The notes under the pieces: generated by a model
Told to the model about the DNA's origin: nothing
The model's database searches: none
Seen by the model: only the letters and a program-made list of their open reading frames with translations
Shown here: piece by piece, positions 23,848 to 26,310 of the stretch
Layout of the letters: every line of letters starts with the position of its first letter
Position numbering within the stretch: the first letter of the stretch is position 1
Virus record (IMG/VR): IMGVR_UViG_3300013383_000248
Direction: 5' to 3' (one strand)
Origin: a virus
Length of the DNA stretch: 64,000 nt
Made by a program: the position numbers and the translations under genes

Positions 23848-24758
23848 TATTTTACAGGAGCTACTAATTCATAAATTTTCTTTAAACATTCAATCCAATA
23901 TAATGCGGCATTTCTATCTACAGTATTTAATTGGATTTTTTTAGTTTTTGTAAAGTCATTAGGGTCAGGAATCTATACTGTCCAAATTTTTATTGGATTC
24001 ATTTTATCCTAATCTATATCTATACGATCTTGGTTAAGATTATTTAAATTGGTAATAATTGTTTCAAAAGTTTTATTTAATAATAAAGTAAATGTCATTT
24101 TACCGTCTTTATCTTCATTCCAATTATTAACTAATCCAGCTATTGTATTATCTCCAAATTCATTAATATAGTCTTGATTTTTATATATGGTACTAATTTT
24201 TAAATTTTCAAATAAACGGAAAATAATCTTTTTTAAAGTATTAATATCATCACTTTCAGCAATACGAGAAAGATGTAAATTCTCTATTAATTTATTCACT
24301 TCTTCACTAGTACATCCATAATTACAATGACCAACACAACCTGCAGAACAAGCACCTGAACATTGTTCAGCACAAGCAGTAGTACAAGTACCAGAGCAAC
24401 CTCCTGAACAAGTGCCAGAGCAATCTCCTGAACAAGAGCCAGTGCAGCTGCTACAATCTCCAGTGCAACTGCTACAACCACCACTACAAGTTCCATTACA
24501 AGAAGGGGAAGGACCACAATTAGCAGAGCAAGGGCCACATCCAGACTAACAAGAAGCGGTACAAGAACAATTATTTTGTTTATTATCTCCTTCATCTCCA
24601 GGCTAGCTACTTGAAAAACAACTTCCTCCACAGGCTGCTTCTTGAGCGTCCTAAGTGTAGTCTCCAGGCTCATTAGTATTTGCATTATTTGAAACACAAT
24701 TTTCTGGTCTATCATAACTGCCCATTTGGACACTATTACTACCTGAATTACAAGCCAT
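23848..24758 (-). CDS. Cys-rich repeat protein (N-terminal CxxxC/SGxCSGxC tandem repeats plus a C-terminal domain); several TAG
   Basis: MACNSGSNS...CSCTASCQSGCGPCSANCGPSPSCNGTCSGGCSSCTGDCSSCTGSCSGDCSGTCSGGCSGTC... is preceded by an RBS GGAGGAATAAAT. Track ORF 24296..24733 is the wrong frame of this gene. Confidence 0.5.
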
Positions 24759-24760
24759 AT

Positions 24761-26059
24761 TTATTCCTCCTTTATTAATTCATTAAATTCTTCTAAAGAA
24801 ATAATTTCTTTTACAAAATTATAATCTACTTTACTCATTACGTTTAAACTTTGTTTATCATTTAGTATTTTATAATAATAAAAAGTAGCTAAGTATTCAG
24901 CTTTATGGCATTGACAAATTGTTGTAGTTCGATGACATAAATCTCCTGTCATCTAATAGCTACATCCAGCGCACCAGCTACATCCTGTCTCTATCGGGCA
25001 TTTTAAGCATTTGTCTTCTGAAATATTACGCTTAGTATATTTTGAAAATTCTTCTAAAATTTGTTTTTCTTTTGGCAAAGTTCCAATTCCTCTATCTACA
25101 TTTCCTAATATTAATGGTTCAACTTCATTTCCCAAAGAACTTTCCATAAAGCGCAAGCAAGAATAAATATCTCCTTTATAATCAAGTGCATACATACTAG
25201 CTGTAGTTCCGCACCATTGGGTATCTAAATCCCATTCTAATAATTTTTTATATCCATAAGGATTAAAAATCCTAAAAAATATTTTATCATTATAATTATT
25301 ATTTTTAATCCATTCAGCTACTTTTTTTAATTCTTGATAATACAATTTTATATCTTCGATATTTTTCCAAACATTTTCAAAAACACAATTAGCATAAATA
25401 TTTTTAAAACCTAAAGACATAATATTAGTTAATCCTTGATAAACATAATTTACATTATCTGGGCTAAAAGTAATTTTTGTACTATTAAAACCTAATCTTT
25501 TGGCATCTAAAGCAGCAGCTACTGCTAAATCATAGCTACCTTGTCCATTAGGAAATAAACGACATTTATCATGTAATTCCTTACATCCATCTAGAGTAAT
25601 ATTTAGACTAAGTAAATTTTTATATTTTTTTATAAATTTCTAAACGGCGGGAGTGAAGTATAAAACTCCATTTGAACAAATATTATAAATATGAAATAAT
25701 TGCCAAGGACTATTATATGGAATTTCATTTAATTTTGTTTCAAAATATTCACATATCTAATCTATTAAATTAATTTCTAACAGAGGCTCTCCCCCAATAA
25801 ATTCTAAAGTTAGTCCTCTTACTGTTTTATCACAAAAAGGACTATTTTCGATGGTTCTATTATTAAAGACATAATCAATAAATTTTTTAGCAGTTTCAAA
25901 AGACATTTTGTGATGTCCTTTATTTTGCTAATAACAATATGAACAACATAAATTACAGTCATCAGTTACCTAAAAGGTTAAAGATTTCATTTGTCTCTAT
26001 GGTAATTCAGGAAATAAATTAATTATATATGTATTATATTCATATCCAGGATTTAACAT
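24761..26059 (-). CDS. Radical SAM enzyme with C-terminal SPASM/twitch domain (anSME/peptide-maturase-like); about 6 TAG
   Basis: A Cx3Cx2C motif (DDCNLCCSYCY) is followed by GGEPLL. The C-terminus CLKCPIETGCSWCAGCSY(Q)...CHRTTTICQCH joins ORFs 24953..25420 and 24761..24952. Confidence 0.6.
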
Positions 26060-26065
26060 AAATTA

Positions 26066-26310
26066 TTTACTCCTTTATCTCTATAAAAAAATTTGGTAAA
26101 TCTACATCAATAACATTACTTTTTAAAATATTATATTTTTGTTTAAATTTAGAAGTAGAGATACCAGCTTTTTTATACTAATCTACATATTTATTTAAAT
26201 AATAAAAATCAAAAGAAAATAAAAATCTCGTTTTTAAAATGTCTTTTAAATATTCTTCTCGAACGAACTAATAAATATCTTCTGAAGAAACATTAATTCT
26301 TTTAATCATT
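26066..26310 (-). CDS. Small protein upstream of the radical SAM gene (80 aa); 2 TAG
   Basis: MIKRINVSSEDIY(Q)FVREEYLKDILK... Confidence 0.3.

Follow-up and report, generated by a model that had tools for sequence, protein, structure and literature searches.

A TAG-recoded phage cassette that pairs a probable CXXX-repeat family radical SAM/SPASM enzyme with its putative protein-sized Cys-ladder substrate

Several radical S-adenosylmethionine (SAM) maturases form thioethers on Cys residues. PapB makes the six Cys-x3-Asp thioether rings of the ranthipeptide freyrasin, CteB forms a thioether in SCIFF, and the SPASM enzyme QhpD puts several Cys thioethers into a protein subunit, QhpC of quinohemoprotein amine dehydrogenase, rather than into a leader-bearing peptide. 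In the CXXX-repeat system (TIGR04115 and TIGR04116), the classical targets are peptides of approximately 55–66 amino acids (aa) with a short leader, often present in several copies. The IMG/VR virus record IMGVR_UViG_3300013383_000248, analysed here as one stretch of 64,000 nucleotides (nt; hereafter, the window), carries a related locus at positions 23848–26310, designated cluster 1, which an initial annotation made from the sequence alone had described as a radical SAM/SPASM maturase gene beside a gene for a Cys-rich repeat protein. On balance, cluster 1 is probably a phage-borne CXXX-repeat modification cassette, which likely makes a thioether-stapled, tail-fibre-associated protein of 303 aa; we infer both the chemistry and the virion location.

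With TAG translated as Gln, the best NCBIfam model for the cluster 1 enzyme is TIGR04115 (“radical SAM peptide maturase, CXXX-repeat target family”), on which it has 349.7 bits over model positions 2–359 of 359. The next-best NCBIfam models are all thioether-forming maturases, namely PapB (NF047865, 171.6 bits), SCIFF/CteB (TIGR03974, 103.6 bits, below the cutoff of 425), CcpM (103.0 bits), and QhpD (TIGR03906, 97.6 bits, far below the cutoff of 453). The SPASM model TIGR04085 is matched with 30.1 bits, above its cutoff of 27. The closest solved structure is CteB (PDB 5WGG and 5WHY, E = 2.3e-38), with an alignment that covers both its radical SAM core and its SPASM domain. The match to TIGR04115, the rank of PapB, and the structural match to CteB support the resemblance to a thioether-type maturase and target of the RiPP class (peptides made by the ribosome and altered after translation) that had been proposed from the sequence alone. 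The two motifs named in that proposal are also present on the minus strand, the radical SAM motif as DDCNLCCSYCY and the SPASM motif as CLKCPIETGCSWCAGCSY, followed one codon later by MTGDLCHRTTTICQCH. Across 26 aligned members of the family, the three Cys of the CX3CX2C motif (C35, C39, and C42) and seven SPASM Cys (C283, C301, C351, C354, C360, C363, and C382) are invariant. CteB is aligned only from its residue 88 onwards, and the phage enzyme therefore lacks a counterpart of CteB residues 1–87, the N-terminal peptide-recognition domain (RiPP recognition element, RRE). Relatives of the enzyme are encoded in at least approximately 550 IMG/VR stretches and at least approximately 550–560 stretches of Bacillota genomes, and related prophage cassettes occur in several cultured strains, among them Anaerobacterium chartisolvens DSM 27016, Eubacterium pyruvativorans i6, Desnuesiella massiliensis, Neglectibacter timonensis SN17, and Dorea hominis NSJ-36. 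Among GenBank phages, the top matches of the enzyme are unannotated human-faecal contigs with no more than 35% identity.

Read with the standard genetic code, the frame of the Cys-rich protein and the SPASM-encoding end of the enzyme gene are both fragmented. All in-frame stops in the two genes are TAG (Table 1), and both frames terminate at TAA. When TAG is treated as a sense codon, open reading frames (ORFs) cover 58 kb of the window instead of 27 kb. Where the enzyme has TAG codons, at residues 30, 44, 140, and 369, Gln is present in 21–25 of 25 aligned homologues, and the window encodes a suppressor tRNA with the anticodon CUA. Because TAG codons line up with Gln in homologues, a tRNA-CUA is encoded, and ORF coverage rises, the sequence indicates that this phage reads TAG as Gln, as is known from gut phages using code 15 (PMC9523058, PMC10879173). 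Translation of all three cluster 1 genes accordingly requires the phage tRNA-CUA reading TAG as Gln. The share of TAG among Gln codons is 38–67% in the cluster 1 genes and similar in the tail-fibre-like genes at 57547–61903; across the whole TAG-using class, which consists of both radical SAM clusters of the window and the tail-fibre-like genes, it is 30–67%. A second class of genes, namely those for a flotillin, a major vault protein (MVP)-like protein, and two gyrase-like proteins, is free of TAG despite 17–30 Gln codons in each gene. The two codon-usage classes look like an early/late split, and the TAG-using class may be read as late-expressed, a reading that follows the model reportedly proposed for recoded phages by Borges et al. 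in 2022.

The gene right behind the enzyme gene, in the position originally described, encodes a protein with 28 Cys, in which 18 of the spacings between successive Cys are C-x3-C. When the same 152 residues are shuffled, the mean is 2.6 such spacings and the maximum 10, and none of the 20,000 shuffles reaches 18. The repeat string quoted in the initial annotation, CSGGCSSCTGDCSSCTGSCSGDCSGTCSGGCSGTC, is found in the protein. C-x3-C repeats are thus present as stated, but no recent tandem repeat exists at the DNA level, where only a 24-nt unit in 2.6 copies was found; the ladder of C-x3-C and C-x2-C spacings is therefore maintained at the protein level. Twelve Cys columns of the ladder are invariant across 51 homologues. 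The residues between the ladder Cys are above all Gly, Ser, and Thr, and Asp and Glu together account for 4.2% of ladder residues versus 27.6% for Cys, with Asp at 3–5% per position in the C-x3-C units. An even number of Cys occurs in just 54 of 112 substrate proteins, which makes obligate disulfide pairing unlikely. The cluster 1 system shares with PapB/freyrasin the four-residue spacing of donor Cys and an enzyme model without a long N-terminal extension, whereas the Asp/Glu acceptors that PapB uses are nearly absent from the phage ladder and the substrate is a protein rather than a peptide. Accounts of PapB enzymology are available (PMC9413430, PMC12373016). In QhpD/QhpC, by comparison, the acceptors are Asp/Glu and the context is a periplasmic enzyme rather than a phage.

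The pairing of enzyme and Cys ladder was examined in 160 enzyme-seeded loci, 80 from Bacillota genomes and metagenome-assembled genomes (mostly Oscillospiraceae, Lachnospiraceae, Clostridium, and Faecalibacterium) and 80 from IMG/VR. In 145 of these loci, an ORF densely packed with C-x2-4-C spacings lies on the strand of the enzyme gene and within 2.5 kb of it, and several of the loci without such an ORF are cut by contig ends. A second scan, seeded with the conserved non-Cys domain of the substrate, yielded 46 viral loci and the enzyme at a distance of 1.2–1.8 kb in 46 of 46, although many loci are near-duplicates and the counts are not independent. The pairing is obligate in both directions over hundreds of phage and prophage loci, and this removes the reading of the Cys-rich protein as a metallothionein-like metal binder unrelated to the enzyme, which had been named at the outset as a possible refutation.

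The loci provided 160 distinct substrate sequences. Three types of target occur. Type (i) is the classical one, in which several copies of a short peptide with a leader of 16–21 residues are encoded in Clostridium and Halanaerobiales genomes. In type (ii), an N-terminal domain of approximately 110 aa precedes the ladder; this is the commonest type, usually encoded upstream of the enzyme, and was found in 74 loci, with the architectures of standard-code loci counted with TAG as a stop. It includes the substrate of a second cassette in the window, cluster 2. In type (iii), which includes cluster 1, the ladder precedes a C-terminal domain and the gene lies immediately downstream of the enzyme gene. 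Profile comparison shows the domain that begins type (ii) proteins to be homologous to the one that ends type (iii) proteins (hhalign probability 92%, E = 8e-8, 92 aligned columns); the two share the helix motif L-K-x2-[IV]-x2-E-x2-R-R, which takes the form D-I-x2-L-K-x2-I-x2-E-x2-R-R in the family of the cluster 1 C-terminal domain. AlphaFold predicts the cluster 2 helical domain confidently as three helices (predicted local distance difference test, pLDDT, 80–94), and the AlphaFold2 model of the cluster 1 protein has a mean pLDDT of 45, with values below 40 in the ladder. A structure search found no relative of the helical domain among solved structures, and a BFVD search returned just two matches, both uncharacterised homologues from gut viromes. 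Searches of Pfam, NCBIfam, and PHROGs with the substrates and the small ORFs were uninformative and gave a single match, phrog_6085, which has no assigned function; many homologues are tagged with the recent Pfam entry PF27846. Some substrates carry extra globular domains, such as a C-terminal domain of approximately 170 aa in locus L130 and an N-terminal domain in protein P0374.

In comparison with the described CXXX-repeat system, the enzyme family as determined by hidden Markov models, the C-x3-C/C-x2-C targets, and the position of a small, putative accessory gene directly upstream of the enzyme gene are the same. The phage targets differ in being proteins of 200–650 aa, with ladders of 8 to 145 Cys and the three-helix domain before or after the ladder, and the phage cassettes differ in lying in phage tail modules and, in the window, in being TAG-recoded and duplicated. 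A protein-sized target inside a phage, as first described for cluster 1, is correct and general across related loci. A literature search in an incomplete library found no product structure or chemistry paper for the CXXX-repeat system, nor any paper on phage-borne, protein-sized CXXX targets. Two CXXX ladders also occur in some bacterial proteins (P0057 and P0090) with a lipoprotein-like signal peptide and other domains, and the ladder module is therefore found in exported cellular proteins outside the phage cassette as well.

The cluster 1 interval is an operon of three tightly packed minus-strand genes, for an 80-aa ORF, the enzyme, and the Cys-rich protein, all preceded by AGGAG-type ribosome-binding sites. 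With respect to gene extents, the adjacency of the enzyme and Cys-rich genes was described correctly at first, but the enzyme begins at 26059 rather than 26310, and the first approximately 250 nt belong to the separate 80-aa gene. In most loci, a protein of approximately 100 aa is encoded directly upstream of the enzyme, and iterative searching with jackhmmer unites these proteins as one family. The family includes a Halanaerobiales protein (L096), a true member of TIGR04116 (“CXXX repeat peptide modification system protein”) with 100.9 bits, and the 89-aa protein of cluster 2 (E = 2.9e-24), which is itself below the TIGR04116 cutoff of 50 bits. The 80-aa ORF has no NCBIfam match, and an ORF of 77–84 aa is kept at its position in related phage contigs. 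Judged from this sequence evidence, the 80-aa ORF is a probable accessory protein of the CXXX system. As further corrections to the first description, the pairing of enzyme and target is already a named database family, and the TAG recoding and the extra small ORF are to be added.

The window is that of a large gut phage, with all genes on one strand, six tRNAs, and tail-fibre-like genes. It is syntenic with gut viral contigs of 104–214 kb, in which a gene order of MVP-like protein, NADAR, phosphoesterases, flotillin, enzyme, Cys protein, and PhoH is conserved; synteny of cluster 1 itself was seen in contigs of 180–214 kb. No match among GenBank phage isolates was obtained by megablast with 20 kb of sequence or by tblastn with the helical domain. 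When 129 neighbour proteins from 16 loci were compared with PHROGs, the commonest assignments were baseplate wedge, tail protein, tail collar fibre, tail fibre, holin, and endolysin. Temperate Clostridia phages carry the cassette at a fixed place, directly behind genes for baseplate or tail-collar fibre proteins and ahead of the lysis genes (holins and endolysins). In locus L001, for example, the enzyme comes after a tail-collar fibre protein (phrog_1780, E = 2.7e-37) and before a type (iii) substrate, and in locus L054 (Anaerobacterium chartisolvens), only 22 nt separate a type (ii) substrate gene from the PF12571 tail-collar fibre gene that precedes it.

Fusion proteins of a tail-collar fibre and a CXXX substrate were considered in the standard-code prophages L028 (4227–5975) and L054 (4213–6057) and rejected, as these are adjacent genes that share a reading frame and are split by one TAG stop and 5–7 codons. 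Suppression or readthrough of TAG would fuse the two products, which could be a coincidence, a relic of a fusion, or a route to one.

Cluster 2 is a complete cassette, which also contains a protein of 190 aa without a known function, and adjoins tail-fibre-like genes (Table 1). The block that precedes cluster 2 in position has a GC content of just 21–23% and the highest TAG usage. It encodes a 209-aa protein rich in Ser, Thr, Asn, and Cys, several proteins with Cys motifs, a 443-aa radical SAM protein whose N-terminal half is weakly twitch/PapB-like, a radical SAM/SPASM protein of 496 aa, and, just upstream, a nucleotidyltransferase-like protein of 221 aa. The block may represent a third, different set of maturase and substrate; the 209-aa protein has no significant similarity to the CXXX helical domain.

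The flotillin (SPFH) gene upstream of cluster 1 lies near the MVP-like gene, whose counterpart in related contigs encodes 825 aa with a major-vault-protein shoulder domain (PF11978). Both genes are conserved in relatives of 180–214 kb, and such a pair is unusual for a phage. Three further ORFs have a GIY-YIG-like N-terminal motif (IYKI.N..NGK.YIGQ), recognized by eye, and carry 3–7 TAG each between TAG-free genes. These ORFs are probably homing endonucleases.

Table 1. Positions of cluster 1, cluster 2, and other features in the window.
Feature	Position	Strand	Remarks
Intrinsic-terminator-like hairpin with T-run	26449–26480	−	14-bp stem, strong; ends the upstream TAG-free flotillin gene; 5′ boundary of the cluster 1 transcription unit
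Cluster 1, 80-aa ORF	26067–26309	−	2 in-frame TAG; own AGGAG; 7-nt gap to the enzyme gene; candidate divergent accessory protein, TIGR04116-like
Cluster 1, radical SAM/SPASM enzyme, 432 aa	24761–26059	−	6 in-frame TAG; TIGR04115 and TIGR04085 matches
Cluster 1, CXXX-repeat substrate protein, 303 aa	23847–24758	−	5 in-frame TAG; starts 2 nt past the enzyme TAA
Cluster 1 substrate, Cys ladder, residues 42–149	24312–24635	−	26 Cys, mostly C-x3-C, with Gly/Ser/Thr between
Cluster 1 substrate, C-terminal domain, residues 150–303	23850–24311	−	homologous to the N-terminal three-helix domain of the cluster 2 substrate
Suppressor tRNA, anticodon CUA	42709–42783	−	needed to translate all three cluster 1 genes; putative Gln identity, from the alignment of TAG with Gln
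Cluster 2, whole cassette	54002–56887	−	
Cluster 2, radical SAM/SPASM enzyme, 428 aa	54002–55288	−	TIGR04115 400.8 bits, above the cutoff of 350; paralogue, 42% identical to the cluster 1 enzyme
Cluster 2, accessory protein, 89 aa	55281–55550	−	member of the accessory family by jackhmmer
Cluster 2, CXXX substrate, 250 aa	56135–56887	−	helical domain first, then Cys ladder, modules in opposite order to cluster 1; no TAG
Tail-fibre-like genes adjoining cluster 2	56933–61903		
SPFH/flotillin protein, 460 aa	26479–27861	−	TAG-free
MVP-like protein, 823 aa	30762–33233	−	TAG-free
Gyrase-like genes	10538–12919; 14283–15812		TAG-free
Low-GC block with radical SAM proteins	46445–53257	−	
Ser/Thr/Asn/Cys-rich protein, 209 aa	52628–53257	−	within the low-GC block
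GIY-YIG-like ORFs	6536–7432; 13430–14140; 35204–35944	−	

The following mechanism is proposed for cluster 1. Late in infection, the enzyme would dock on the helical domain of its substrate, and the small accessory protein would probably aid docking by standing in for the missing RRE. Because the enzyme lacks a recognition domain of its own, docking would most obviously fall to the accessory protein and the helical domain. The enzyme would then proceed along the ladder and, at each Cys, a 5′-deoxyadenosyl radical would take hydrogen from a nearby carbon, whereupon the Cys sulfur would close a small thioether ring. Such repeated radical thioether formation on each Cys sulfur is the most likely activity by analogy with the homologous PapB, CteB, and QhpD. 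Acidic residues make up so little of the ladder that the acceptor cannot be the Asp/Glu used by PapB. We infer instead that it would more likely be the C-alpha (sactionine-type) or another carbon in the next CXXX unit. Modification would yield a stiff rod, non-reducible and resistant to proteases, with the helical domain as its anchor on the tail fibre or baseplate. Such a rod would be well matched to virions that are put together in an anaerobic, reducing cytoplasm and have to survive in the gut.

Taken together, location in tail modules, extra globular domains, variability in length, and codon usage of the late-gene kind suggest that the product is a virion protein associated with the tail fibre. 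A possible functional analogy is provided by glycine-rich or metal-stapled distal modules of tail fibres, such as the T2/S16 gp38 adhesin and the T4 gp37 tip, in which a small-residue-rich, length-variable module is encoded right behind a tail-fibre gene. These differ from the present system in that no radical SAM enzyme is involved, and no similarity in sequence or fold to them was detected. For cluster 1 itself, the link to tail fibres rests on the prophage homologues and on the TAG usage class, since its own neighbours are non-structural.

Several points weigh against a thioether-stapled virion protein. The chemistry rests wholly on homology, the score of the cluster 1 enzyme is 0.3 bits short of the TIGR04115 cutoff of 350, and the match to the PapB-type model is below its cutoff of 340. 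The ladder is without the acidic acceptors that PapB requires, and AlphaFold finds no confident fold for the ladder of either cluster 1 or cluster 2. The 80-aa ORF aligns with the accessory family collinearly from end to end, though weakly (hhalign probability 33%, E = 4e-4). Cluster 1 is flanked by genes for flotillin, phosphoesterases, and PhoH, with no recognisable tail genes adjacent. Moreover, the slot between tail-fibre and lysis genes that the prophage cassettes occupy is a classical site for phage cargo (“morons”), and position alone proves no structural role. A bolder form of the proposal is only tentatively put forward, namely that the proteins with CXXX ladders truly form part of the tail fibre or virion and that the phage enzyme turns a Cys/Gly/Ser shaft into a long, non-reducible thioether ladder. 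The linkage chemistry may be one not yet described, because the residue at i+4 is itself a Cys and acidic acceptors are missing.

The cassette could alternatively be cargo, by which a phage or prophage makes a modified Cys-rich product (a bacteriocin, toxin, or signal) that is not part of the virion, and that is either of use to the lysogen or set free at lysis; the only role of the helical domain would then be that of an oversized leader or follower, removed later. The classical members of the family, which are short, leader-bearing peptides in several copies beside the enzyme in Clostridium and Halanaerobiales, conform to this explanation, as does the prophage position at a known cargo site. 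However, no protease or exporter gene is present in the cassettes inspected, and the cassette genes run in the same direction as the tail genes and are spaced by just tens of nucleotides. The genes in the window need the suppressor tRNA and hence would not be expressed from a silent prophage, and substrates with up to 650 aa and as many as 145 Cys, some with extra globular domains, are unlike any known secreted RiPP. A cargo product is considered unlikely, but a real rival.

Less probable still is a ladder that binds metal or Fe-S, either metallothionein-like or as a metal-stapled fibre, with the radical SAM enzyme limited to a few sites or to a different task such as cluster insertion. His-metal ladders in the fibre tips of T4 provide an analogue. 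The second position of the C-x2-C units is Gly in 75%, which is similar to metal-binding knuckles, small residues dominate between the Cys, and one homologue was automatically named as a Cys-rich domain in UniProt. Nevertheless, the strict two-way co-occurrence with a SPASM enzyme of the peptide-maturase type is not expected of a plain metal binder, no metallothionein or other match was found in Pfam or NCBIfam, and the nearest relatives of the enzyme all use up Cys thiols in thioethers.

The enzyme might also act like an anaerobic sulfatase maturase and oxidize Cys to formylglycine or dehydro-residues without forming cross-links. The two share the same SPASM architecture, and the sulfatase maturase model TIGR03942 gives a weak full-length match (E = 4.7e-12). 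This match has 45.6 bits against a cutoff of 349, so that the grouping with sulfatase maturases raised early on as a possible refutation was not observed; moreover, the substrate has no C/S-x-P-x-R sulfatase motif, and the ORF set of the window includes no sulfatase gene. Oxidation of Cys without cross-linking is accordingly regarded as highly improbable. Lastly, decay of both genes into pseudogenes, to which the 11 in-frame stops under the standard code could have been attributed, is ruled out by the evidence for TAG as Gln, as all 11 stops are TAG in a window that encodes a tRNA-CUA, TAG matches conserved Gln, and many samples yield full-length homologues.

Among these possibilities, a thioether-forming CXXX-repeat cassette remains the preferred explanation of cluster 1. 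The pairing of enzyme and target is already contained in NCBI family names; what appears to be new is the occurrence of whole-protein substrates, built on a new helical domain, in phage tail modules. Radical SAM/SPASM maturases have been studied almost solely on small peptide natural products, and the cassette suggests that they are also used on whole proteins in phage tail-fibre modules. If true, this would be the first RiPP-type radical cross-linking of a viral structural protein and a new post-translational modification of virions, in which covalent, redox-insensitive stapling would be fit for anaerobic hosts and the gut. It would also define the reaction of an enzyme family that has been an orphan for 15 years, and would provide a genetically encoded means to rigidify Gly/Ser-rich linkers.

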